DNA of 64,000 nt from Thermodesulfobacteriota bacterium. Its GTDB lineage: Bacteria > Desulfobacterota > Desulfarculia > JACQYL01. This document shows, piece by piece, positions 1,175-21,475 of the stretch (the stretch's first letter is position 1; each line of letters begins with the position of its first letter). The notes beneath the pieces are model-generated. The model was not told the DNA's origin, did not search any database, and worked only from the letters and a program-made list of their open reading frames with translations. The DNA lies in the NCBI GenBank assembly GCA_963675595.2, contig CAXXLZ010000001.1:288001-352000 (forward strand), in the 5' to 3' direction. A program made the translations under genes and the position numbers.

Positions 1175-1343
1175 ATTCGACTCCTTTTGTCGGCCGGTCG
1201 CAAAACGGCTGTGATATGGCCCTTCCCGGATTCATTCATGCTGTGAAAGCTGCGTTTTGAATGCGGTTATGCTATAACTATCTGGAATTACAGGATATGC
1301 TTTGAATAAAAAATAAACCTGATTATTCGTTTGGTGAAAAAAC

Positions 1344-1370
1344 TAAAGTAATTTCGCCGTTAGTCGATGT
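1344..1370 (+). promoter_or_regulatory. sigma28 (FliA)-type promoter, distal copy 1
   Basis: TAAA-N15-GTCGATGT versus consensus TAAA-N15-GCCGATAA; spacer nearly identical to those at 5694 and 9675. Confidence 0.75.
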
Positions 1371-1377
1371 GTAAAGT

Positions 1378-1460
1378 GACAACGAGATGCCAGTCTCAAA
1401 CTCCTGATTGAATGAAGAGGACAACCCCGTTCCCGTGTTGCAGGTGCCGGCACATCTGTG
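1378..1460 (+). ncRNA. Candidate anti-flagellin-RBS structured sRNA, copy 1 (3' end unknown)
   Basis: Hairpin GAGA-TGCCAG-TCTC (1384-1397), anti-SD CTCCTGATTGAATG (1401-1414), hairpin CAGGTG-CCGGCA-CATCTG (1441-1458). Confidence 0.55.
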
Positions 1461-2218
1461 ACCCCGGAGCCCACGAGCGTGAAGGAAGCGTTTCGCTTTC
1501 CCGCTCGGAAAGGAGATTGAAGCACCCATCCAAATAGACGCTTTCTGAAGGATTTTCAAGTGGGGTCCGGTTCAACGCCTCCCGCAGCCGGAACGGGCAG
1601 ACCGGCCGAAAGGGAACGAGGGCGTCGGAGACCCCGACGAGAGAAACGAGAACCGTAAACGGGAGTCCCGTTTGATCGAATTTCGCGTAGCGATGAAGAG
1701 ACCGAATACCCAAGGAGAACGCGGAGAATACTACCAATTGATGACGTAGCGGATTTGGCGAGGTGCTCCTCGGTCCCATCCCATGCTCGATTTCAGCGCC
1801 GCCGACCGCGGCGGGGGCGTTGCGAGGGGAGGACCCGGGCTGAGAAGTCAAGACCATCTTGAGGCGTCGAGGTCTTTGGGGAAGCTGAAAGCCGTATTCA
1901 CGGCTTTGGCGAGCCGCGAGCCTTTAGGTTTCGTTCGCGTCCACCGCCGGGGCACAATGCATTTTCAGCGGTGGGAACCTCATCCATATTATTCTGAAGC
2001 ACAATCGGCAGTCGTCTATCTAAATTCACCCAAAACTTTCGAAGCCTCGACTCAACAGGAAGTGGAATCTCCGTTCCGCCTCCTCTTATCTCGAGCAGTA
2101 CCCTCCTCTTTTGCCCTAATCCGACATCTATTGCACGAATCGGCCACCGGAAAGCAAGCTCGGGAGACCATTTGTCCCGCATAAAGGCTCCGATTGTGAA
2201 AAAAATTTGTTCTCATGC

Positions 2219-2245
2219 TAAAGTTGGTTCACAAAGTGACGATAT
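2219..2245 (+). promoter_or_regulatory. sigma28-type promoter of flagellin 1
   Basis: TAAA-N15-GACGATAT about 195 nt upstream of the ATG. Confidence 0.75.
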
Positions 2246-2438
2246 CCAAAGCGAAGCTGTTGAATAAATCGATGAATCCAAACCGAGATTAAAAGTTTTT
2301 TACAGATTTCGTTTTTCGAAGGGAGGAATTCGAAAGAATATAAACCGGAACATCAAAAACGTCATTTGCCGGATGACGCGACGAACAACCATGCGGGGAA
2401 GGGAGTCCCCTAAGCATTCAATCAAGGAGGATTGAGAA

Positions 2439-5285
2439 ATGGCATTATCCGTTGTTAACAATCTTGCATCTTTTTCCGCCCAGCAGGCCCTCACCAAGAG
2501 CACGTACCATCTTCAGAAGGCCCTGAATCATCTTTCCACCGGCTACCGCATCAACAGTGCGGCGGACGATCCCTCCGGCTTGGCCATTTCCGAGCGATTT
2601 CGCGGTCAGATTCGAGGCCTGGAGCGCGCCACGGCCAACGCCCTGGATGCTCAGTCCATGCTGCAGACCGCCGAAGGCTCGCTGGGGGAAACGCACGCCA
2701 TTCTTCAGCGCATGCGGGAACTGGCCGTTCAGGCGGCCAACGGCGTGCTCACCGGAAGCGACAGACAGGAACTGCAGCGCGAGGTGGATCAATTAAAGGA
2801 AGAAATCGACCGCATCGCCACGGCTACCGAGTTCAATACCAAGAAGCTTCTCGATGGATCCTCGGCCGCCCTGTGGAGCGCGGACGGATCGGATATCACC
2901 GCGATCATCCGAGGTCGCGTTGTGGAAGGAAACTACAAGCTGGTCAAGAACGCCGAGCCCCTGACCAATCATGTGTTGAAAACGGACATTTTTCGTTTGA
3001 AGGACGGAGCGATCTCACAAGAGGAGGAAGGGTCCGCCAACCAGTTGCGCTTCACCTTCGGTGGGGATGACGGTGAATTAACCGTGGCGGGCGGATCGAC
3101 CCTGAATTTCCGTTTCAACTTCGACGGTGTGAACAACATCGATATCGGGGTAACGGCGGGATCCGCGGACGGAAGCGGATTTACGGACGCCGAATACCTG
3201 GCGAGGGTGATCAACGCCAACTCGACCATCAGCCGATACGTCGAGGCCGAATTGGTTTCCGAAGGCGATATTGTTTTGCGGTCCAAAGAAGTCACGGAAA
3301 TCGGAGACAATTATACTCTGCAACTGGTCACCGCCGGGGGCGGGGCTTCCGCGGTGGCGGCGTGGCAGCCCAACATTACCAATTGGGGCGGAGATGAGTT
3401 GAGCTCGACCCAGACGAGCAACAACCTCTGGACTACCGCGGTACGATTCGCCGATTTCGATCTTGTTGTGGGGTCGACGGCATCGGGAACCATGGGAACC
3501 TTCGGCACGGACCGCGCGACGGCCGCCGAGAACAAAGTGATCCAATATGTGAGTAATGCGGCGGAGCTCGAGGGCGGCGACTACGAAATCACCACTGTGG
3601 CGGCGGATAACATCCCCAGCGGCCTGCAGGGTGCGGATGGTTTGAGCGTCGACGCCGGCTTGCTCATGGGCGCCTATATGAAGAGCTCTTCCACTGCGGA
3701 AGTCACCACGATTCAGGCCGCCGTGGACGCAAACCATTACGTGATCGTCGAGGTCACCGGGGCCGGCGGGAGCGGCGTGGTGGACCTCAAAGTCTCCTGG
3801 GATCAGGGCGCCACCTGGACCAACATCGGCAACTACCATGAGGGCGCGTCAATTAATAAGCTAGCCGGGGATCCGGATAACTGGTTCTCCTTGCAGTTCA
3901 ACGGCGATATGGCTACGGGGGACCGTTTGCTCATCGGATTGCAGAATGGAATCGCAGCGACCTCCAACGTGGCGCGGCTCACGGGTCCCGCCAACGAATG
4001 GACCAACATAGCGGATTCCGACGGTGGATGGGACCCGAGGGAGAACCTCGCCGGCGCGGACTTCCAGTATTTCAATCATGGGCTTTGGGAAGATTTGGGT
4101 GCCAACCCGGGAAGCAAAACCGATACTTTGACCTTTGCCCGCATGGACGAGGAAGGACGCGTAACCTTTGGCACGCTGGACGTCACCTGGGGCACCGATG
4201 CCAACTTCGAGAGCAGAAGTTCGAGCATCAACATTCTCCAAGGGGGAGACGTCGCCGGCTTGACCACGGAACTGTCCAAAATCGACCGGTTCTACGACGC
4301 CAATGGAAATTTTATTCTGGGCGATAACGGCAAGTGGATCGACATCTACACCGCCGCGGGAGATCAGGCTTCTTTTTATGTGGACGGCGGCGACACGGTA
4401 AAGGAGCTTGCCGATAAGATCGAGCAGATCATCAGCCTGGAGGCCACCTCTCAAAACTGGGAAGGCCTGGGATTGGGCACCGTACTGGATTCCGAAGGCG
4501 AGAATCATGTGGTGGACTTTGTTACCAACGCCACGGAGAACTCCGACGAAGCGGTCAAGGGAACCCTGCTCATTCGGTCGCCGAAACAAGGATTGAGCGG
4601 AATCCTTTACTTCAGCGCGGAAGAAGCCGTGCTCAACGCTCTGAGTCTGGCCACGATTAAGGACCCGTCCGAGGACGTGGACCCGTTGACGGTTGAGGTA
4701 TACGATGCGCACACGGGGGAATTGATCGGACAGGATACGGTAAGCGACAACGTGCTTCACGGCGTCATCCAGGGAGTTGATGTTCTGGTGGACGCCAATG
4801 TGGACATCAATTACTCCTGGAACGAAAACACCAAAGAAATCGACTTCTACAGCGCCACCGAAGACCAGATCGAATACCTGCACGTTGTGGACAACTCGGT
4901 GAATTTTCAGATCGGCGCCAACCCCGGGCAAATCATGGAAGCTCATATCTCACAGATGGATGCTTTGGGGCTCGGAATCGAAAACGTGCTGGTCGTGAAC
5001 CAAGCCACGGCAGTGGCCGCCTTGGACAGCATCGATGAGGCCATCCAACGGGTGTCTTCAGAACGCGCCCGACTGGGTGCCTATGTCAACCGACTCGATT
5101 TCACCATTTCGAACCTGGCCGTTCAGGAGGAGAATCAGATCGCAGCCGAGTCCCTGATTCGCGACCTCGACATGGCCATGGCCATCTCGGAGATGACCCA
5201 GTACCAGATTCTGCAGCAGGTGGGCGTTGCCATGTTGGCTCAGGCCAATGCCATGCCTCAGAGCCTCCTCAGCCTGCTCGGATAA
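2439..5285 (+). CDS. fliC: Flagellin 1 (948 aa, large variable domain)
   Basis: N-terminal LSTGYRINSAADDPSGLAISE...LQRMRELAVQAAN; C-terminal RARLGAYVNRL...IRDLDMA...MLAQAN. Confidence 0.97.
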   Translation: MALSVVNNLASFSAQQALTKSTYHLQKALNHLSTGYRINSAADDPSGLAISERFRGQIRGLERATANALDAQSMLQTAEGSLGETHAILQRMRELAVQAANGVLTGSDRQELQREVDQLKEEIDRIATATEFNTKKLLDGSSAALWSADGSDITAIIRGRVVEGNYKLVKNAEPLTNHVLKTDIFRLKDGAISQEEEGSANQLRFTFGGDDGELTVAGGSTLNFRFNFDGVNNIDIGVTAGSADGSGFTDAEYLARVINANSTISRYVEAELVSEGDIVLRSKEVTEIGDNYTLQLVTAGGGASAVAAWQPNITNWGGDELSSTQTSNNLWTTAVRFADFDLVVGSTASGTMGTFGTDRATAAENKVIQYVSNAAELEGGDYEITTVAADNIPSGLQGADGLSVDAGLLMGAYMKSSSTAEVTTIQAAVDANHYVIVEVTGAGGSGVVDLKVSWDQGATWTNIGNYHEGASINKLAGDPDNWFSLQFNGDMATGDRLLIGLQNGIAATSNVARLTGPANEWTNIADSDGGWDPRENLAGADFQYFNHGLWEDLGANPGSKTDTLTFARMDEEGRVTFGTLDVTWGTDANFESRSSSINILQGGDVAGLTTELSKIDRFYDANGNFILGDNGKWIDIYTAAGDQASFYVDGGDTVKELADKIEQIISLEATSQNWEGLGLGTVLDSEGENHVVDFVTNATENSDEAVKGTLLIRSPKQGLSGILYFSAEEAVLNALSLATIKDPSEDVDPLTVEVYDAHTGELIGQDTVSDNVLHGVIQGVDVLVDANVDINYSWNENTKEIDFYSATEDQIEYLHVVDNSVNFQIGANPGQIMEAHISQMDALGLGIENVLVVNQATAVAALDSIDEAIQRVSSERARLGAYVNRLDFTISNLAVQEENQIAAESLIRDLDMAMAISEMTQYQILQQVGVAMLAQANAMPQSLLSLLG

Positions 5286-5307
5286 CCTGCGGTCCGCGAC
5301 GCAATTC

Positions 5308-5345
5308 AAGGCGGGGCTCCGTTTCGGAGCCCCGCCTTCTTTTTC
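5308..5345 (+). terminator. Rho-independent terminator after flagellin 1
   Basis: AAGGCGGGGCTCCG-TTT-CGGAGCCCCGCCTT hairpin followed by a T-tract. Confidence 0.85.
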
Positions 5346-5693
5346 GTAACGGTTCTCCTCCACGCCCGCCCATTTCTTCTCGGGATACCTTCGGATTCCG
5401 ATTTCGGTGACATCTCGAGCCGCCGCCACTCGTGCTTCGGCCGGACGCCGGCACACGAAGCGCTTCCCAGCCTCCGCGTCGTCCTCCGTTCCTGCATTCG
5501 TGAGAGTTGAAATCGGTACAACCCCTTAATTCCCGTCGCCGTTGACGTTATGGGCGCAGGTTGAGGCACGGCGAGGCCTCGAAGACCCGTCTGAATCGGT
5601 TGTCTTGGTGGCGTTTTCCCGGCGCTAAGGTATGCGATGGAGTAAAATTTCAATTTATGAACAAAGTCGAACACGATTTTTCTTTTATAAATG

Positions 5694-5720
5694 TAAAGTA
5701 TTTTCGCCGTTTGACGATGT
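5694..5720 (+). promoter_or_regulatory. sigma28-type promoter, distal copy 2
   Basis: TAAA-N15-GACGATGT. Confidence 0.75.
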
Positions 5721-5727
5721 AAGAATC

Positions 5728-5810
5728 AAACAGGTAATGCCACCTGAACTCCTTGATTGAATGCGGATTGGGAAGCCGAAAACTCCCGGGTGCCGGCACA
5801 TCCGGAAGAA
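5728..5810 (+). ncRNA. Candidate anti-flagellin-RBS structured sRNA, copy 2 (3' end unknown)
   Basis: Hairpin CAGGT-AATGCC-ACCTG (5731-5746); 5749-5773 is the exact reverse complement of 10277-10301; hairpin CCGGGTG-CCGGCA-CATCCGG (5786-5805). Confidence 0.65.
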
Positions 5811-6057
5811 AAAGGCGAAGTTAACCGTCACGACACACAAGAAACATCGCAACGGATGGGAGGATGATCCATCTTTCGTTAAGTCGTCGGATTCGGGCCG
5901 CCCGGGGTCGGGCATCAAACTCCGTGCAATGCTTTTCCGGCCTCCGGGATAGTCGTTAGGAACGGCACGAACCCCGAATATTCAAATCTTTCTCTCCTTT
6001 TTGATCAGCCGACAGTCCCCGGTTGAGCGCAAAATGCGCTTTTCCGCGCCTTGACAC

Positions 6058-6084
6058 TCAAGTTCGTCCGTTTCACACCGATAC
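6058..6084 (+). promoter_or_regulatory. sigma28-type promoter of flagellin 2
   Basis: TCAA-N15-ACCGATAC, positionally equivalent to the promoter at 10032. Confidence 0.65.
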
Positions 6085-6345
6085 AATTTGCGGGTAACTG
6101 CGGGGATCGCACCCGTCTCAAGCGGACGTGCATGCGATTTCCCTATCGTCTTTTGGTGATGCACGTTGATCCGAGCACCCTTGCCGGAGGGAGAGCGGAG
6201 GCGATGTGCATTGCTGCGGAAAGGGGGGGATAAGCCAACTAGAGCGCACTATTCCGTTGAGAATCGCCCCATAAGGGGACATCTCACGATGCCTTAGACG
6301 AGGGAATGGATTCCCGATCTGAGTTCAATCAAGGAGGATTGATTC

Positions 6346-9162
6346 ATGGCATTGACTGTTGTCAATAATATTGCTTCATTCGCTGCTCAGAAGGCCCTCA
6401 GTTCGAGTACCACTCACCTGCAGAACGCCCTGAACAGCCTTTCCACCGGCCTCCGCATCAACAGCGCGGCGGACGACCCGTCCGGACTGGCGATTTCCGA
6501 GCGGTTCCGCAGCCAGATTCGAGGCTTGGAACGCGCCACGTCCAACGCCTTGGACGCTCAGTCCATGCTGCAAACCGCGGAAGGCTCCCTCGGAGAAACC
6601 CACGCCATCCTGCAACGTATGCGCGAACTGGCGGTTCAAGCGGCCAACGGCGTGTTGACCGCAAGCGACCGGCAGGAAGTTCAGCGCGAAGTGGACCAGC
6701 TCAAAGAAGAAATCAACCGCATCGCCAACACCACCGAGTTCAACACCAAGAAACTGCTGGACGGTTCCTCCACGGCCCTTTGGAGCGCGAACAATTCCGA
6801 CATTGAAGCGGTCATTCGCGGAAAGGTGGCCGAAGGCAACTACAAGCTGGTGAAGAGTGCGGAGCCGCTGAGCAACCAGGTACTGAAGACGGATATCTTC
6901 CGGCTGAAAGACGGGGCCATCTCCCAGGCGGAAGAGGGTTCTCCGAACCAGATGCGGTTCACTTTCGGCGGATCGGATGCGACAATAGACGGAACCGGGG
7001 CGTCGACATTGACGTTCCGGTTCAACTTCGACGGCGTGAACAACATAGACGTATCGTTGAACTCGGCGTCGGGAGACGCCGCCCTCTTAACCGACGCGCG
7101 GTATTTGGTGGATGCCCTCAACGCCAACGCGACCATCAGCCAATACGTCGAAGTGGAGCTGGTGTCCAACTCGGACATTATCATTCGGTCCAAGGGGGTA
7201 ACGGACGAAAGCGACAATTATACCCTTCAGCTGGTGACCGGCGGAGGCGGTGCGTCGGCCGTGGCGGCGTGGCAGGCCAACATCACCAACTGGAGCGGAG
7301 ATGAGCTGAGTTCGACCCAGGCGACCAACAACCTCTTTACTTCCGCGGTCCGTTTCGCGGATTTCGATCAGATCGAAGGTCAGGTGAACTCGGGAGTGAC
7401 GGGCACCTTCGGAACGGACCGAACCACGGCCGCGCAGAACAAGGTGATCCAGTATGTGAGCAACGCCGAGAACCTCGAAGGGGGCGATTACGAAATCCTT
7501 ACCCTGTCGGCGAACGACTTTCCGAGCGGTACGGCGGGCGGAATCGGCGCTGTGGACTCCGCGTGGATTTTGGGCGCTCATCGACAAAGTTCGTCCACGG
7601 GAGAGATCGTGACCCTTACGGCGAGCGTTGACGAGAACCAGTACGTCATCGTCGAAGTGACCGGCGCAGGGGGCAGCGGCGTGGTGGACCTGAAGGTTTC
7701 CTGGGACCAGGGAGAAACCTGGACCAATGTTGGGAACTATCATGATGGGACTTCCATCAATAAGACTACCGGAGACCCGGCCAACTGGTTCTCCATGGAC
7801 TTGAACGGTGACTTGGCCACCGGCGACCGGTTCCTTTTCGGTCTGCAGGACCAATTGGATACGACCTCCAACTATGCCAGGCTGACGGGTCCCGCCAACG
7901 ATTGGTCGACCAGCTTGACCGCGGATCTGACGGAAGACTACGAGAACTTCAACCACGGGTTATGGCAGGACCTGGGAGCCAATCCGGGTGAGAAGACCCA
8001 TACCCTGACGCTTGCGAGCATGGACGAGGAAGGACGGGTGACCTTCGGCACCCTCGATGCCACCTGGGGAATGGATGACGATTTCGAGAGCCGAAGCTCG
8101 AACATCAAGATTCTCGAGGGCGGCGACGTTGCCGGTCTGACCACGGAGTTGTCCAAGATCGATCGATTCTACGACTCCAGCGGGAACTTCGTCCTGGGCG
8201 ACAGCGGCAAATGGATCGATGTCTACACCGCCGACGGAGACAACGCGTCGTTCTACGTGGACGGCGGTGATACGGTTCAGGAGCTTGCCGACAAGCTGGA
8301 ACAGATCATCAGCCTAACCTCGACTTCCCAAAACTGGGATGGTCTGGGGCTGGGCACGGTGCTGGACTCCGACGGCGAGAACCACGTGGTGGATTTCGTT
8401 ACCAACGCCACGGAGAACTCCGACGAAGCCGTCGAAGGAACCATGATCATTCGTTCGCCCAAACAAGGGGTCAACGGCTACCTCTATTTCAGTGCGGAGG
8501 AAGACCTGCTCAACGCCCTGAGTTTGGCCACCATCCAGGACCCCAAGGAAGACATCGATCCTCTCACGGTCACCGTATACAACGCCCACACGGGCGAGTT
8601 GATCGGCGAGGACACGGTGAGCGACAACGTCCTGCACGGAGTCATCCAGGGTGTGGACGTAATGGTGGACGCCAATGTGGACATCTCTTACTCCTGGAAC
8701 GATGATACTCGAGAGATCGACTTCTACAGTTCGGAAGGAGTGCAGGAAGAGTACCTCCACGTGGTGGACAATTCGGTGAACTTCCAGATCGGCGCCAACC
8801 CGGGCCAAGTGATGGAAGCCTACATCACACAGATGGATACCGTGGGATTGGGCGTTCAAAACGTTCTGGTGGTGAACCAGGAGACGGCCTCCGATGCCAT
8901 GTCCACCATCGACGACGCCATCCAAAGGGTGTCCTCGGAACGCGCCAGGCTGGGCGCTTACGTGAACCGTCTCGACTTTACCATCTCGAACCTGGCGGTT
9001 CAGGAGGAAAACCAGATCGCGGCGGAATCTTTGATCCGCGACCTGGATATGGCCAAGGCCATTTCCGAAATGACCCAGTACCAGGTGTTGCAGCAGGTGG
9101 GTGTGGCCATGCTGGCCCAGGCCAATACCTTGCCTCAGATGGTGCTGTCCCTACTCCGGTAA
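6346..9162 (+). CDS. fliC: Flagellin 2 (938 aa)
   Basis: Conserved flagellin N- and C-terminal helical domains; paralog of 2439-5285. Confidence 0.97.
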   Translation: MALTVVNNIASFAAQKALSSSTTHLQNALNSLSTGLRINSAADDPSGLAISERFRSQIRGLERATSNALDAQSMLQTAEGSLGETHAILQRMRELAVQAANGVLTASDRQEVQREVDQLKEEINRIANTTEFNTKKLLDGSSTALWSANNSDIEAVIRGKVAEGNYKLVKSAEPLSNQVLKTDIFRLKDGAISQAEEGSPNQMRFTFGGSDATIDGTGASTLTFRFNFDGVNNIDVSLNSASGDAALLTDARYLVDALNANATISQYVEVELVSNSDIIIRSKGVTDESDNYTLQLVTGGGGASAVAAWQANITNWSGDELSSTQATNNLFTSAVRFADFDQIEGQVNSGVTGTFGTDRTTAAQNKVIQYVSNAENLEGGDYEILTLSANDFPSGTAGGIGAVDSAWILGAHRQSSSTGEIVTLTASVDENQYVIVEVTGAGGSGVVDLKVSWDQGETWTNVGNYHDGTSINKTTGDPANWFSMDLNGDLATGDRFLFGLQDQLDTTSNYARLTGPANDWSTSLTADLTEDYENFNHGLWQDLGANPGEKTHTLTLASMDEEGRVTFGTLDATWGMDDDFESRSSNIKILEGGDVAGLTTELSKIDRFYDSSGNFVLGDSGKWIDVYTADGDNASFYVDGGDTVQELADKLEQIISLTSTSQNWDGLGLGTVLDSDGENHVVDFVTNATENSDEAVEGTMIIRSPKQGVNGYLYFSAEEDLLNALSLATIQDPKEDIDPLTVTVYNAHTGELIGEDTVSDNVLHGVIQGVDVMVDANVDISYSWNDDTREIDFYSSEGVQEEYLHVVDNSVNFQIGANPGQVMEAYITQMDTVGLGVQNVLVVNQETASDAMSTIDDAIQRVSSERARLGAYVNRLDFTISNLAVQEENQIAAESLIRDLDMAKAISEMTQYQVLQQVGVAMLAQANTLPQMVLSLLR

Positions 9163-9674
9163 ACTGAAACCATAATGATCCATAGGGGGCCCCGCATGAC
9201 CGGGCTCCCGCAACGGATCGAGTCCGGTGTCGAGGCGAACCGCCTCGGCATCGTTCTCTCCAAACCCAATTCGGGACCAAAACCGGTTCAAGGCCATTCC
9301 CTCCCCGAAGCCTGCCCGGTTCGCCCGGATCACCTTCGGCTCCCCAGCTGCGGAGCGGGTTTCGTCACGGAGCCGCGCTCCACCTTTTCGACATCCCCTC
9401 CATATGGCTCCTCAGGAGCGCTCTTCTTGTCGTTTCTCGCAAAGTGCGCCACCGTTATCATTTCATGGATCTAAGAATAAGCAAGGGGTGAGGTAGACGC
9501 CTCATTTCGTTAATAGTGGTTGTAGTGCCGACGATTGACCCTCCATTCACGAAACGCCTGAAACCTTAGGTTTCTATCTGTGGTTTCGGTGCCGGCTTTG
9601 CGCTCCTTATCATGATGACGGAGTGCGATTTGAAGTCATGGTGAAACCTAAAGACGATTTTTTTCATATGAAGG

Positions 9675-9701
9675 TAAAGTAATTTCGCCGGTTGACGATA
9701 T
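9675..9701 (+). promoter_or_regulatory. sigma28-type promoter, distal copy 3
   Basis: TAAA-N15-GACGATAT. Confidence 0.75.
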
Positions 9702-9708
9702 ACAAATC

Positions 9709-9790
9709 AAACAGGTAATGCCACCTGAACTCCTTGATTGAATGCAGATTGGGAAGCCCGCAACTCCCGGGTGCCGGCACACCCGGAAGA
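9709..9790 (+). ncRNA. Candidate anti-flagellin-RBS structured sRNA, copy 3 (3' end unknown)
   Basis: Hairpin CAGGT-AATGCC-ACCTG (9712-9727); anti-SD CTCCTTGATTGAATGCAGATTGGGAA (9730-9755); perfect hairpin CCGGGTG-CCGGCA-CACCCGG (9767-9786). Confidence 0.65.
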
Positions 9791-10031
9791 AAAAGGCCGA
9801 GTTAACGCATCAACCCCGTGACGAACCTAGGTGAAGAAATCCACAGGAGGTGTTTTTCTCAAAACCATAAATCGCCGGCCCGTCACAGCCCATCCAGAGG
9901 CGTCGGGGTTCCCGTTCCATGCCCTTCTATTTTCAGGGTTGACGGGAGGTCGCTCGCGCTCTGGTACCTCCCCGCCTTACGTTCAACCCCCCTCGGGCGA
10001 ACGCAAGATACGTTTTCCTATGCCCTGAAGC

Positions 10032-10058
10032 TAAAGTTCCGCCTTTCCATGCCGATGC
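10032..10058 (+). promoter_or_regulatory. sigma28-type promoter of flagellin 3
   Basis: TAAA-N15-GCCGATGC, near consensus. Confidence 0.85.
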
Positions 10059-10310
10059 TATAACCGACCGACTATCGGATTTGCACGAGTCTCGTGAAGA
10101 CGTGCGTGCAGATTTCCATCTCCGAGGCGCGAGCCGCTGATCCGTGGACCCTTGCCGGAGGGCGAACGGGGATGACAAGCGCCGCGGCGAAAGGGGGGAT
10201 GCCCGGAAATATGCTGATTCTTGGGGGACGTCCCATGGGAGGGAAGTCTCTCAAAACCTCAGACAAGGGAATGGAATCCCAATCCGCATTCAATCAAGGA
10301 GGATTGATTC

Positions 10311-13157
10311 ATGGCATTGACTGTTGTCAACAACATTGCTTCCTTTGCTGCTCAGAAGGCGCTCAGCTCGAGTACCACTCACCTGCAGAACGCCCTGAAC
10401 AGCCTTTCCACCGGCCTTCGCATCAACAGCGCGGCGGACGATCCGTCCGGACTGGCGATTTCCGAGCGGTTCCGCAGCCAGATTCGGGGCTTGGAACGCG
10501 CCACGTCCAACGCCTTGGACGCCCAGTCCATGCTGCAAACCGCGGAAGGTTCTCTCGGAGAAACCCACGCCATCCTGCAACGTATGCGCGAACTGGCGGT
10601 TCAGGCGGCCAACGGCGTGTTGACCGCAAGCGACCGGCAGGAAGTTCAGCGCGAAGTGGACCAGCTCAAGGAAGAGATCAACCGCATCGCCAACACCACC
10701 GAGTTCAACACCAAAAAGCTACTGGACGGCTCCTCCACGGCCCTCTGGAGCGCGAACAATTCCGACATTGAAGCGGTGATTACGGGAAAGGTGTCCGAAG
10801 GCAACTACAAACTGGTGAAGAGCGCCGAGCCGCTCAGTAACCATGTGTTGAAGACGGACATTTTCCGGCTGAAAGACGGAGCCATCTCGCAGGCCGAAGA
10901 GGGGTCCGCGAACCAGATGCGCCTCACTTTCGGTGGAGACGACGGAGAAGTGACCGTCGCAGGCGGATCGACCCTGAACTTCCGGTTCAACTTCGACGGT
11001 GTAAACAACATCGATATCGGAGTAACCGCAGGATCCGCCGACGGCACGGGCTTTACGGACGCTGAATATCTGGCGCGGGCCATCAACGCCCACTCGACCA
11101 TCAGCCAGTACGTGGAGGCGGAACTGGTGTCCGAGGGCGATATCATTATTCGCGCCAAGGATGTGACGGACGACAGCGACAACTACACGCTGCAAATGGT
11201 GACCGCCGGAGGCGGCGCGTCGGCCGTGGCGGCGTGGCAGCCCAACATCACCAATTGGGGCGGTGATGAACTTAGCTCGACCCAGACGAGCAATAACCTC
11301 TGGACTTCCGCGGTCCGTTTCGCGGATTTCGATCAGATCGAAGGTACGGTCAACTCGGGAGTCACGGGCACCTTCGGTACGGATCGGACCACCGCCGCCG
11401 AGAACAAGGTGATCCAGTACGTCAGCAACGCCGCCGATCTCGAAGCGGGCGACTATCAGATCACAACGGTGGCAACGGGCGACATCCCCAGCGGTTTGCA
11501 GAGTACGGACGGTCTGACCGTGGATCAGGGTCTGCTCATGGGCGCTTATCTCACGAGCACGTCCACGGCGGAAGTCACGACGATTCAGGCGGCCGTGGAT
11601 GAGAATCAGTACGTTATCGTCGAGGTGACGGGAGCCGGCGGCAGCGGCGCGGTGGACCTGAAGGTTTCCTGGGACCAGGGCGCCACATGGTCCAGTGTCG
11701 GGAACTACCACGAAGGAACCTCCATCAACAAGGTCGCCGGAGACCCGGACAACTGGTTCACGCTGGAATTCACCGGGGACATGGCGACCGGAGACCGCTT
11801 GCTTATCGGGCTCCAGAACGGGATTGCAGCGACTTCCAACGTGGCGAGGCTGACCGGTCCGGCCAACGAATGGACCAATGTAACGGATTCCGACGGAGAT
11901 TGGGACCCGAGGGAAAACCTGGCCGGGGCGGATTACCAAACCTTCAATCATGGGCTGTGGGAAGACCTGGGGGCCAATCCCGGTGAGAAGACCCATACCC
12001 TGACGTTTGCGAGCATGGACGATGAAGGGCGGGTGACCTTCGGCACCCTCGACGCCACCTGGGGCGCGGATGACGACTTCGAGAGCCGAAGCTCGAGCAT
12101 CAAGATTCTCGAGGGCGGCGACGTCGCCGGTCTGACCACGGAGTTGTCCAAGATCGATCGGTTCTACGACTCCAGCGGGAACTTCGTCCTGGGCGACAGC
12201 GGCAAATGGATCGATATCTACACCGCAGAAGGAGACAACGCGTCGTTCTATGTGGACGGCGGCGACACGGTGCAGGAGCTTGCCGACAAGCTGGAGCAGA
12301 TCATCAGTCTCACCTCGACTTCCCAGAACTGGGATGGTCTGGGGCTGGGCACGGTGCTGGACTCCGACGGCGAGAACCACGTGGTGGATTTCGTTACCAA
12401 CGCCACGGAGAACTCCGACGAAGCCGTCGAAGGAACCATGATCATTCGTTCGCCCAAACAAGGGGTCAACGGCTACCTCTATTTCAGTGCGGAGGAAGAC
12501 GTACTCAACGCCCTGAGTTTGGCCACCATCCAGGACCCCAAAGAAGACATCGATCCTCTCACGGTCACCGTATACAACGCCCACACGGGTGAGTTGATCG
12601 GTGAGGATACGGTGAGCGACAACGTCCTGCACGGAGTCATCCAGGGTGTGGACGTGATGGTGGACGCCAATGTGGACATCTCCTACTCCTGGAACGAGGA
12701 TACTCGAGAGATCGACTTCTTCAGTTCGGAAGGAGTGCAGGAAGAGTACCTCCACGTGGTGGACAATTCGGTGAACTTCCAGATCGGCGCCAACCCGGGC
12801 CAAGTGATGGAAGCCTATATCACACAGATGGACACCGTGGGATTGGGCGTTCAGAACGTTCTGGTGGTGAACCAGGCGACGGCCTCCGATGCCATGTCCA
12901 CCATCGACGACGCCATCCAGAAGGTGTCCTCGGAACGCGCCAGGCTCGGCGCCTACGTGAACCGTCTCGACTTCACCATCTCGAACCTGGCGGTTCAGGA
13001 GGAAAACCAGATCGCGGCGGAATCTTTGATCCGCGACCTGGATATGGCCAAGGCCATTTCCGAAATGACCCAGTATCAGGTGTTGCAGCAGGTGGGTGTG
13101 GCCATGCTGGCCCAGGCCAACACGTTGCCTCAGATGGTGCTGTCCTTACTCCGGTAA
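10311..13157 (+). CDS. fliC: Flagellin 3 (948 aa, mosaic of flagellins 1 and 2)
   Basis: Conserved flagellin termini almost identical to flagellin 2; central blocks resemble flagellin 1. Confidence 0.97.
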   Translation: MALTVVNNIASFAAQKALSSSTTHLQNALNSLSTGLRINSAADDPSGLAISERFRSQIRGLERATSNALDAQSMLQTAEGSLGETHAILQRMRELAVQAANGVLTASDRQEVQREVDQLKEEINRIANTTEFNTKKLLDGSSTALWSANNSDIEAVITGKVSEGNYKLVKSAEPLSNHVLKTDIFRLKDGAISQAEEGSANQMRLTFGGDDGEVTVAGGSTLNFRFNFDGVNNIDIGVTAGSADGTGFTDAEYLARAINAHSTISQYVEAELVSEGDIIIRAKDVTDDSDNYTLQMVTAGGGASAVAAWQPNITNWGGDELSSTQTSNNLWTSAVRFADFDQIEGTVNSGVTGTFGTDRTTAAENKVIQYVSNAADLEAGDYQITTVATGDIPSGLQSTDGLTVDQGLLMGAYLTSTSTAEVTTIQAAVDENQYVIVEVTGAGGSGAVDLKVSWDQGATWSSVGNYHEGTSINKVAGDPDNWFTLEFTGDMATGDRLLIGLQNGIAATSNVARLTGPANEWTNVTDSDGDWDPRENLAGADYQTFNHGLWEDLGANPGEKTHTLTFASMDDEGRVTFGTLDATWGADDDFESRSSSIKILEGGDVAGLTTELSKIDRFYDSSGNFVLGDSGKWIDIYTAEGDNASFYVDGGDTVQELADKLEQIISLTSTSQNWDGLGLGTVLDSDGENHVVDFVTNATENSDEAVEGTMIIRSPKQGVNGYLYFSAEEDVLNALSLATIQDPKEDIDPLTVTVYNAHTGELIGEDTVSDNVLHGVIQGVDVMVDANVDISYSWNEDTREIDFFSSEGVQEEYLHVVDNSVNFQIGANPGQVMEAYITQMDTVGLGVQNVLVVNQATASDAMSTIDDAIQKVSSERARLGAYVNRLDFTISNLAVQEENQIAAESLIRDLDMAKAISEMTQYQVLQQVGVAMLAQANTLPQMVLSLLR

Positions 13158-13661: not shown

Positions 13662-13974
13662 CAGAGCTGATTTCCACCCATCTCGTGTGGGAGGACGCTT
13701 GATCGCTTCCCGGCAAGTTCGAAAAGACATGGGGAGCGTAAAGGGTGTGGTATGTCCTGAGAAGCGAATGTTTCCCTCCGCCCTTGTATCTCATCTCTCG
13801 CCGTGCTTCGAAGGTCCCGAAGTACTCTCCGGCTTCGGGGCTTCTATTCCGATGCTGCGGTCCGGCGCCTCTTCTTGGCCTCGCTCCCAATCCCCAACCG
13901 CTTGTCACCCGTTGTGGTTTCGCCTACAATACGATTCCTTTGGCAAATCCAGACGAGGAAGGAATCTATTGGTC

Positions 13975-14451
13975 ATGACTTGGAAGCGTAAGGTAATGCG
14001 TCTCTTTTACTTGGGCGCGGTGGTTTGTCTGGTTGGAACGCTGGCTGTTTCCTCGGCCGCCGCGGCGAAAGTCCGGTGGGAGTCCTATGACGAAGGGATC
14101 GCTCGAGGAAAGAAGGAGCAGAAGAAGATACTGGTGAAGTTTCACGCGGATTGGTGCACTTACTGCAAAGAGATGGAGCGGACCACCTTTTCCGATCCGG
14201 AAATCGTGGCCTACATCAATCGCTATTTTGTTCCCGTGTCCGTGGATACGGATAAACAGAAGGGGCTTGCCGTCAGGTACCGGGTGAACAGTCTTCCGGC
14301 TTCCTGGTTCTTGGATTATAAAGGTGAGCAGATCCTTCCCGTGCCGGGATATGTACCCCCAAAAATGTATCTTTATTTCCTGGAATGGATTGCGGAGGAC
14401 GGGTACAAGGATACGTCCCTGAAGGACTTTCTGAAGAATAAGAAGGAATGA
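13975..14451 (+). CDS. Exported thioredoxin-family protein (SoxW/DsbD-gamma-like)
   Basis: Signal peptide, FHADWCTYCKEM CxxC motif, cis-Pro SLP; start reassigned from 13687. Confidence 0.85.
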   Translation: MTWKRKVMRLFYLGAVVCLVGTLAVSSAAAAKVRWESYDEGIARGKKEQKKILVKFHADWCTYCKEMERTTFSDPEIVAYINRYFVPVSVDTDKQKGLAVRYRVNSLPASWFLDYKGEQILPVPGYVPPKMYLYFLEWIAEDGYKDTSLKDFLKNKKE

Positions 14452-14527
14452 GCCGGAAGGAATGATCCTCCGATTTCCGTCGTGGGGACCGGAAGGGCGG
14501 GGAAAGGATCGGCTTCCCGGGGTCCGG

Positions 14528-15268
14528 TCAGAGCTTATTCACGAACCATTCGGGTGCCACGCTTTGCAGGTAGCTGTTGATGGTCGCCAGGCTGTCCGTG
14601 AAGATCAACAGACCCACCAGAACCAACAATATCCCGGCGAAGAGGTTGAATACCGGGAGCCACCGTTTGATTCGGCTGAGCAGTGGAAGAAAATGACCCA
14701 CCGCCAGGGACGCGAGAAAGAACGGGACCGCCATTCCGAGGGAATAAGTGGTCAGCAGGATGATTCCCTGGGTTGCATTCTGATGGGTCCCCGCAACCAT
14801 TAGAATCGACCCGAGAATGGGCCCCACGCACGGAGTCCAGCCCACCGCGAAAGTGATTCCCACCAACGTCGTTCCCAAATAGCCGGCAGGCTTGTGCCGC
14901 AAGTGAACCGAGAATTCCTTCATCAGAAAAGGAAGCTGAAACTTGTATGAGAGGGCGATGAGCAGGCCGAAGAGGATGATCAATATCCCCCCGACCTTTC
15001 GGATGATATCCCCGTAGTCGAAAAAGAAACTCCCGAGGGTGCTGAAAGAGAAGCCCAGCGCCACAAAAGCGATCGAAAAACCGAGGATGAAGAAAAGGGA
15101 GTGGATGATCACCCGTCTACGGTATACGGGCTGGTCCTCAATGGCGATCTGATCGTAGCTGAGGCCGGTAATAAAGCTCAAATAGGAAGGGAACAACGGA
15201 AGGGTGCAGGGGGACAGAAAGGTCAACACCCCGGCGGTGAAAGCGATAAGGATGGTCACATCGGCCAA
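14528..15268 (-). CDS. ccdA: Cytochrome c biogenesis / transmembrane electron transporter CcdA
   Basis: FLSPCTLPL and GWTPCVGPILG motifs; about six TM helices. Confidence 0.92.
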   Translation of the reverse strand: MADVTILIAFTAGVLTFLSPCTLPLFPSYLSFITGLSYDQIAIEDQPVYRRRVIIHSLFFILGFSIAFVALGFSFSTLGSFFFDYGDIIRKVGGILIILFGLLIALSYKFQLPFLMKEFSVHLRHKPAGYLGTTLVGITFAVGWTPCVGPILGSILMVAGTHQNATQGIILLTTYSLGMAVPFFLASLAVGHFLPLLSRIKRWLPVFNLFAGILLVLVGLLIFTDSLATINSYLQSVAPEWFVNKL

Positions 15269-21002: not shown

Positions 21003-21257
21003 TTATGCGGGCAACCGGTTCAGCGGCTCTTCGCAAAACGGGCATGAGAGCAAAAGAACGATGTCCTCTTGGGGGTCAAGAGGGTTCTTTTCCTTGCCGA
21101 AGCCGGAGGACTGGCAGAAGATGCATTTGTAGACCACATATGAGCGCTTCTTGTGAAAACAGGAAGAACATACGAACCCGATGATCTCCATGAAGTAACA
21201 AGACTCTTTGTTGATGGGTTGTCCACAGAGCCCGCATACTTCCAGGCTGTAACGCAT
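21003..21257 (-). CDS. Small protein with four CxxC motifs (double zinc finger)
   Basis: CGLC, CSSC, CIFC and CPFC in 84 aa; start could be up to 21302. Confidence 0.65.
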   Translation of the reverse strand: MRYSLEVCGLCGQPINKESCYFMEIIGFVCSSCFHKKRSYVVYKCIFCQSSGFGKEKNPLDPQEDIVLLLSCPFCEEPLNRLPA

Positions 21258-21475
21258 GCGGGTTTCGGATAGACGGGGAATGGAAGGGTCCCGGCTAAGC
21301 ATATCTTATCTCCGTTCAAACCGCGCTCGAAACCCCTGCCGCTCCCGGGACAAGAGTACGTTCGTCCCGAAACGTCGGAATTGTCGGGGGCTGCGCCGCG
21401 GGCGCTCCCGTAGCTTATGATAATGGGCAGACCAGCTGTCTCTATTATCGGCGAAAGTTCCCACGGACTTTAGCC

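Follow-up and report, generated by a model that had tools for sequence, protein, structure and literature searches.

The window, by which we mean the whole 64-kb stretch of DNA that was analysed, carries within its first 13 kb three tandem giant-flagellin genes, all on the + strand, and each of them is preceded by a short module in which a sigma-28-type promoter stands before an inverted, imperfect copy of that gene's translation start region. We propose that the module is a FliA-transcribed gene for an antisense RNA that acts in trans on the flagellin leader, a reading that we judge to be about evenly balanced between right and wrong. It is built on sequence, namely the anatomy of the module, the excess of complementarity, the conservation, the lineage-specific matching, the presence of fliA, csrA-fliW and rnc, and no hfq found. 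From these we infer transcription of the module, the 3' end of its RNA, its action in trans and the sign of the regulation.

The first-pass annotation of this DNA had placed one module before each flagellin, and this is what we find, on the + strand at 1344-1462, 5694-5805 and 9675-9786 (parts in Table 1). A flaG gene lies downstream of the three flagellins, followed directly by genes for a thioredoxin-like protein and a DsbD-type membrane protein (13687-15268), and an ankyrin-repeat protein is encoded directly upstream of the cluster (17-493, +). The whole genome of 6.79 Mb (G000) encodes five flagellins, of which only the three in the window have a module; the dispersed fla4 and fla5 are at G000:C2:2595071 (-) and G000:C1:1381844 (-), and a search elsewhere in the genome found no further module for either. 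All five flagellins are giant, with open frames of 939-989 aa and a long insert in the middle, separating Flagellin_N from Flagellin_C. A tree of the first 645 aa groups flagellin paralogues by genome and not by module presence, a pattern that suggests concerted evolution or recent duplication. The module-bearing flagellins do not form one clade in this tree, and three changes are required. Two open reading frames in the spacer, 1783-2184 (+) and 1396-1857 (-), were considered as coding sequences and set aside, having no Pfam match.

Table 1. Features of the three flagellin loci, with positions counted from the first letter of the window.
Feature	Position	Strand	Detail or basis
Module 1 distal sigma-28-type promoter	1344..1368	+	TAAAGT-N13-GTCGAT; exact pattern match; 11/16 consensus positions
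Module 1 antisense segment	1376..1440	+	ATGCCA 1387-1392 (start-codon complement); anti-SD CTCCTGATTGAATG 1401-1414
Module 1 hairpin 2	1441..1458	+	CAGGUG/CAUCUG; invariant CCGGCAC 1447-1453; MFE fold
fla1 proximal sigma-28-type promoter	2219..2243	+	exact pattern match
fla1 5' UTR hairpin	2360..2378	+	CGUCAU/AUGACG, loop UUGCCGG
fla1 translation initiation region (predicted target)	2390..2460	+	GGA-loop hairpin and SD hairpin UCAAGGAGGAUUGA
Flagellin 1 (fla1)	2439..5285	+	948 aa; Pfam Flagellin_N and Flagellin_C
Module 2 distal sigma-28-type promoter	5694..5718	+	exact pattern match
Module 2 antisense segment	5727..5785	+	hairpin 1 5731-5746 (loop AAUGCC); anti-SD 5749-5763
Module 2 hairpin 2	5786..5805	+	CCGGCAC 5793-5799; predicted loop CCGGCA 5793-5798
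fla2 proximal sigma-28-like promoter	6058..6082	+	TCAA-N15-ACCGAT; 12/16 consensus positions; weaker
fla2 5' UTR hairpin	6178..6191	+	CCCU/AGGG, loop UGCCGG
fla2 translation initiation region (predicted target)	6297..6367	+	duplex and alignment scores
Flagellin 2 (fla2)	6346..9162	+	938 aa; open reading frame, N-terminal homology
Module 3 distal sigma-28-type promoter	9675..9699	+	exact pattern match
Module 3 antisense segment	9708..9766	+	hairpin 1 9712-9727; anti-SD 9730-9744
Module 3 hairpin 2	9767..9786	+	CCGGCAC 9774-9780; predicted loop CCGGCA 9774-9779
fla3 proximal sigma-28-type promoter	10032..10056	+	exact pattern match
fla3 5' UTR hairpin	10149..10162	+	loop UGCCGG
fla3 translation initiation region (predicted target)	10262..10332	+	duplex and alignment scores
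Flagellin 3 (fla3)	10311..13157	+	948 aa; open reading frame, homology
Leader layout GGGAAnGGAnUCCC/UCAAGGAGGAUUGA	2390-2438, 6297-6345, 10262-10310		also at L043, L044, L054-L056, L061, L065

The consensus of sigma-28 (FliA) promoters consists of a -35 element TAAA(GTTT), a 15-nt spacer and the -10 element GCCGATAA. Within the 64 kb, TAAA-N15-GNCGAT is matched exactly at just five places, 1344, 2219, 5694, 9675 and 10032, all of them on the + strand upstream of flagellins. Three of them belong to the modules (11-12 of 16 consensus positions), in agreement with the distal promoters and their orientation as annotated at first pass, and the separate proximal promoters that had been ascribed to the flagellins are also present, at 2219, 6058 and 10032. 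It had further been stated that all six promoters have a 15-nt spacer, which is indeed common to all; five match the pattern exactly, and the site at 6058 has the weaker form TCAA-N15-ACCGAT. A proximal sigma-28-like promoter lies at -196 to -288 of every module-bearing flagellin in the genomes, and the flagellin on the metagenome contig L076 has one too; the distal promoter precedes the start codon by 509 to 1095 nt. In all five genomic modules, 18 nt separate the -10 element from the motif ATGCC, a spacing on which the strict search pattern described below was built.

Some other sigma-28-like sites deserve mention. The module-less fourth flagellin (L065, on G000:C2) has two such promoters, at -528 and -288 from the start codon, and neither an antisense copy nor ATGCC nor CCGGCAC follows the distal one. 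The first bases that would be transcribed from the proximal promoters of module-less flagellins (L055, L065; AAAGCAAACAG...) resemble the starts of the module RNAs, and the L055 site, which belongs to the second flagellin of the related genome G001, is scored at 31.7 bits by our covariance model R1. Another site of this kind, at 21447-21472 (-), TAAAGT-N14-GCCGAT with a spacer of 16, lies upstream of a 99-aa cysteine-rich (CxxC-type) open reading frame (21003-21302, -), to which no function was assigned.

Over about 70 nt (-49 to +22), the start region of each flagellin is complementary to the RNA predicted from its module. The first-pass annotation had recognized that the module is antisense to the ribosome-binding region and had confined the complementarity to a 15-nt Shine-Dalgarno (SD) segment; RNAduplex and local alignment uphold the former and extend the latter to the whole 70 nt. 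When the first 60-70 nt of the module RNA were paired with the start region, duplexes of -50.2 to -70.5 kcal/mol with 46-54 pairs were obtained, well beyond those of dinucleotide-shuffled modules, which average about -25 to -31 kcal/mol (sd 4-5). For module 1 with the fla1 start region the values are -70.5 kcal/mol and 53 pairs, against a shuffled average of -29.4 (sd 4.7). Similarly, the local-alignment score of the module with the reverse-complemented start region exceeded the maximum of 1000 shuffles for five modules out of five, and the module is the top-scoring 75-nt window of each flagellin upstream region. These long duplexes and the alignment excess show the module to be an inverted copy, with imperfections, of the 5' end of its own flagellin gene, and the copied region covers the GGA-loop hairpin, the SD, the AUG (as the module motif ATGCCA) and codons 2-7.

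Within this copy, the anti-SD sequence CTCCTTGATTGAATG is exact at 5749 and 9730 (+), and its reverse complement is found at the SD regions of fla1 and fla3; the fla2 SD region has two mismatches to it, and the anti-SD of module 1, CTCCTGATTGAATG, is one base shorter. The 15-mer and its complement, at up to three mismatches, give eight matches in the window against 1.7 expected, a number reached by none of 100 shuffles, and over the 6.79-Mb genome, at up to one mismatch, the motif is restricted to the flagellin locus and one unrelated site. The copies in this genome track their neighbours, since module 1 mirrors the codons of fla1, and modules 2 and 3 those of fla2 and fla3. On the other hand, modules 2 and 3 both score best with fla3, and a 25-nt stretch of module 2 (5749-5773) is perfectly complementary to the fla3 start region, versus 13 nt to its own fla2; no clear cross-paralog design emerges from these matches. 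Exact inverted-repeat cores are 9-16 nt long here and at most 11 nt in the related genomes G001 and G002.

Both short hairpins reported at first pass are predicted by minimum free energy (MFE) folding, but the folding energy of the module as a whole is no better than that of shuffled sequences (z = -0.98, +0.09 and -0.67 for modules 1-3). Covariation over a common structure of hairpin 2 is likewise not in excess, with 75% of cells paired versus 69.9% after shuffling and 76 of 500 shuffles as high. The loop region of this hairpin contains CCGGCAC, which is invariant in all six known modules, and the predicted loop CCGGCA(C) is complementary to a loop (G/U)UGCCG(G) predicted in the flagellin leader at all five module-bearing loci and, by sequence, at L076. 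The motif TGCCGG is present in the 300-nt leader of five out of five module-bearing flagellins versus none of seven module-less ones (Fisher p = 0.0013, or 0.003 with fla2 and fla3 counted once), the genome-wide expectation being 0.17 per 300 nt, or 0.04 for the 7-mer carried by G001 and G002. It is placed in a hairpin loop in 5/5 local folds and in 4/5 folds of the whole short leader. Five different stems support this loop, including CGUCAU/AUGACG, CCCU/AGGG and GUCCC/GGGAC, with GGUUCC/GGAACC and, on L076, GGUUUC/GAAACC as further ones, and a C-G pair is changed to U-A between G001 and L076. The module and leader hairpins are complementary in their loops only and have unrelated stems, which fits a loop-loop RNA contact and would not be predicted for a gene-converted DNA repeat.

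The module behaves as a discrete unit. The upstream regions of fla2 and fla3 are 82-97% identical over about 5677-5830 and about 35-40% identical on both flanks, and beyond the module it recovers only where the proximal promoter, the UTR hairpin and the start region lie. In a related strain, among the differences listed, module 1 has at least one substitution (1384 G>A), with at least six in the 94 nt upstream and at least 17 in the 627 nt downstream, counts that give no more than a hint.

To describe the distribution of the module, we used a strict pattern consisting of the promoter, 14-22 nt, ATGCC, 35-65 nt and CCGGCAC. It matched five sites in three of the 95 genomes of the class, all of them in one family (f1) and all upstream of flagellins; the reversed control gave no match, and no module was found in the other 92 genomes. 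The covariance model R1 recovered the same five modules at E <= 5e-22 and nothing convincing elsewhere, its remaining matches being flagellin proximal promoters (31.7 bits at best) and weak ones. Fifteen of the weak loci (E 0.01-1, other families) were examined and rejected; one is upstream of a flagellin and consists of a promoter only, with no antisense copy. BLASTN of the module in 40 relatives returned only noise. The homologous modules of G001 and G002, which represent other genera of the same family, came to light when the four closest genomes (G000-G003) were inspected at their 12 flagellin loci, and the flagellins with a module number 3/5, 1/2 and 1/2 in the three genomes of f1. A lack of conservation beside flagellins in related genomes had been named beforehand as a possible refutation; modules are present in both G001 and G002, and each matches its own flagellin.

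In GTDB species genomes the strict pattern found one real locus, which has the same sequence as the G002 module locus, and in metagenome contigs one more copy, L076, which resembles G001; two further matches in the former and five in the latter have neither the CTCC segment nor a flagellin and were judged to be chance. Thirteen flagellin loci belonging to other families of the class showed no upstream antisense copy (best scores 16-24, near background), one of these loci being without an identified start and three having doubtful starts. Only about four independent module lineages are known, all from one family. The module also matches no family of Rfam 15, in line with the first-pass annotation, which did not recognise the motif: nothing in the whole window reached a gathering threshold, and at E <= 5 over 1200-10400, only an unrelated weak match inside the fla1 coding sequence appeared.

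Modules of different genera fit their own flagellins best. The G001 module has an alignment score of 25 with its own start region versus 12-18 with 11 others, and that of G002 scores 31 versus 17-20. A block of the G001 module, GTAACGCTTTG, mirrors CAAAGCGTTAC in the leader of its own flagellin, and the G002 module is nearly continuously antisense to its own gene from the SD to the start codon. The antisense part, as far as sequences can tell, tracks its target at the level of lineage-specific blocks. At single positions the picture is less sharp: among 31 column pairs of module and start region with at least three lineages, three change on both sides, eight on one side and 20 on neither, and the pairing fractions are only slightly higher for cognate than for non-cognate combinations. 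Reading the + strand, G:U mismatches number 15 versus seven for A:C, a difference that is not significant and is suggestive of an RNA made from the + strand. Gene conversion between inverted repeats could mimic such co-variation of module and target.

FliA is present in the genome (TIGR02479, 252.8 bits versus a cut-off of 189.6), csrA and fliW are adjacent at G000:C2:1771727-1772387 (87.2 bits for CsrA and 130.7 bits for FliW), RNase III (rnc) is encoded, and Hfq (PF17209) was not found in this 98% complete genome. The flagellin leaders of the four genomes have a hairpin GGGAAnGGAnUCCC, with GGA in its loop, and then the SD hairpin UCAAGGAGGAUUGA; both sequences occur in six of 12 leaders, and most of the others have a closely similar form of the first hairpin, fla5 and G003a being the most divergent. 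To judge from its sequence, this pair of GGA motifs, one in the upstream hairpin loop and one at the SD, has the two-site arrangement of flagellin mRNAs that CsrA represses, and we refer to them as presumed CsrA sites.

We propose the following mechanism. The module would have arisen as an inverted copy of the 5' end of the flagellin gene that later diverged, and there are hints that its promoter was born by duplication of a flagellin promoter. Transcription would start a few bases downstream of the -10 element and run through at least hairpin 2, giving an RNA of about 100 nt. The loop CCGGCA[C] of hairpin 2 would first kiss the loop (G/U)UGCCG[G] of the flagellin 5' UTR hairpin in trans, and then the 5' two-thirds of the RNA, which are largely free of structure, would zip onto the region from -49 to +22. 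Within this region lie the Shine-Dalgarno sequence, the GGA-loop hairpin upstream of it, the AUG and the initial seven codons. Duplex formation would shut out the 30S subunit (and CsrA) and would probably invite cleavage by RNase III, so that translation of the three clustered flagellins may be repressed. Because brake and target would both be under sigma-28, the circuit would be an incoherent feed-forward or threshold device.

The 3' end is where another explanation comes closest. The distal promoter may instead produce an alternative flagellin mRNA, whose leader of 0.5-1.1 kb folds back onto its own ribosome-binding site by the kissing and antisense contacts already described; distal transcripts would then be silent or RNase III-sensitive and proximal ones translated, and promoter choice would set the output. 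We regard this as rather unlikely, though several observations speak for it. No module copy has an intrinsic terminator after hairpin 2, and there is no canonical terminator between module and flagellin, which counts against a discrete 3' end of a small RNA. This absence is more notable because the organism does use such terminators, as seen from a strong canonical one after fla1 at 5308-5338 (+), with a 14-bp stem and a T-run. Moreover, in MFE folds of the full leader the module pairs with 34-51 nucleotides of the 71-nt start region, and with 12-15 of the 18 from SD to AUG, at all five loci, and module and target are always adjacent and co-directional. Against the long leader, regions with C > G follow hairpin 2 in five of six copies and could be Rho entry sites, a weak point, and a second sigma-28 promoter would be redundant. 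An antisense RNA acting in trans is nevertheless favoured by the proximal promoters, by the spacer between module and proximal promoter, which is unconserved (about 35-40% identity) and variable in length, by module 2, which matches fla3 better than its own fla2, and by the kissing design.

It is improbable, in our opinion, that the module matters only as DNA, either as a decaying fragment of a flagellin 5' end kept by gene conversion or as the arms of an inversion switch flanking the proximal promoter. Such an origin would agree with an imperfect inverted copy of -49 to +22, with the grouping of paralogues by genome, suggestive of concerted evolution, and with the weak formal RNA covariation. 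It leaves aside a correctly oriented sigma-28 promoter that is kept at a constant 18-nt spacing across three genera, the sharp end of conservation at the module edges, and a second contact that is complementary in loops and not in stems; the exact repeat cores, moreover, are merely 9-16 nt, or no more than 11 nt in G001 and G002. With respect to inversion, no strand-changing joint was present among the 15 joints listed from DNA contigs of four runs, contigs being blind to rare variants. Breaks in these contigs fall on the repeated module and start-region sequences, which is to be expected of assemblies. A functional minus strand, serving as a flagellin-leader mimic that decoys CsrA or ribosomes or as a tiny translated open reading frame, is most improbable: it does read as a degenerate flagellin start (SD-like AAGGAG, then GUGGCAUUA) and folds well in module 3 (z = -2.58), but that strand has no promoter-like signal near the modules and lacks the GGA-loop hairpin, its folds lack significance in the other two modules (z = +1.11 for module 1 and -0.15 for module 2), and, for coding in general, the mini-ORFs that begin at ATGCC on the + strand give unrelated peptides of 6-10 aa with no SD and no conservation.

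If the RNA exists, it may represent a hitherto undescribed class of self-templated regulators, in which a gene's start region, duplicated and inverted behind a second FliA promoter, yields a small RNA that kisses the leader and seals the SD, the AUG and the presumed CsrA sites. In the apparent lack of Hfq, the three clustered flagellins would then have a tunable threshold apart from the two dispersed ones, and the composition of the filament would be controlled. We offer this broader view tentatively and rate it somewhat short of even. Control of flagellin at the RNA level is known from only a few model Proteobacteria, and here comparative sequence alone defines a compact and testable antisense system in uncultured or little-studied Thermodesulfobacteriota. 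If true, it would show small RNA genes arising from their own targets and would add an RNA layer to the CsrA-FliW checkpoint of flagellin synthesis. Its general importance is limited, since the family of modules is narrow (three genera). A full-text search of the literature turned up no account of an inverted flagellin start region that carries a promoter.

The antisense systems CopA/CopT, RNA I/RNA II and Sok/hok work by loop-loop recognition followed by a long duplex, a block of translation and a cut by RNase III, with no chaperone. The modules resemble them in having complementary loops in both RNAs, as predicted at 5/5 loci, and the combination of long complementarity, a kissing loop and no Hfq found is what one would expect of an antisense RNA that works independently of a chaperone. 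RNAs of the CopA/CopT type are transcribed opposite their targets and are hence perfectly complementary to them; in contrast, the antisense gene of the module is separate, imperfect and on the same strand, 0.5-1 kb upstream of its target. A true cis-encoded antisense RNA was rejected for this reason, with module and target on one strand and the promoter 509-1095 nt before the start codon.

CsrA-FliW controls translation of hag in Bacillus subtilis. The leaders described here resemble such targets in their GGA-loop hairpin and the GGA at the SD, and csrA and fliW are adjacent in the genome; that control is protein-based, whereas both presumed CsrA sites would be masked by the module RNA, which would add an RNA layer not described for these systems. 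Control of flaA by CsrA-FliW has also been described in Campylobacter jejuni (PMC4894983).

Sigma-28-dependent small RNAs are known from Escherichia coli, where UhpU, MotR, FliX and FlgO are UTR-derived, carry Hfq as a keyword and act on mRNAs of regulators or ribosomal proteins via short seeds (PMC10578931), and CJnc170 of C. jejuni is FliA-dependent (PMC11187230). These RNAs feed back on flagellin level, flagellar number or filament length and have other targets than the modules, which would share with them expression from the late flagellar sigma factor. The modules differ from the E. coli RNAs in that their predicted target is the flagellin start region, their complementarity is long and Hfq was not found. 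An Hfq-dependent RNA acting in trans was rejected, with Hfq not found in the 98% complete genome and no terminator-like site after the modules.

The nearest functional analogue of the modules is FlaX of Vibrio cholerae. This small RNA pairs at three sites in the flaB leader, prevents 30S binding and alters flagellar composition; it is derived from a 3' UTR, associated with ProQ and does not use Hfq (PMC11879080). A 3' UTR origin of the same type was rejected for the modules, which have their own promoters, module 1 having no flagellin upstream and module 2 lying beyond the fla1 terminator. Multi-site pairing with the 5' region of a flagellin mRNA is described for FlaX, and two complementary sites are predicted for the modules. 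Unlike FlaX, to which we saw no sequence relationship, the modules are inverted copies of their target, with a sigma-28-type promoter of their own upstream of it, and would combine about 70 nt of near-continuous complementarity with a loop-loop contact.
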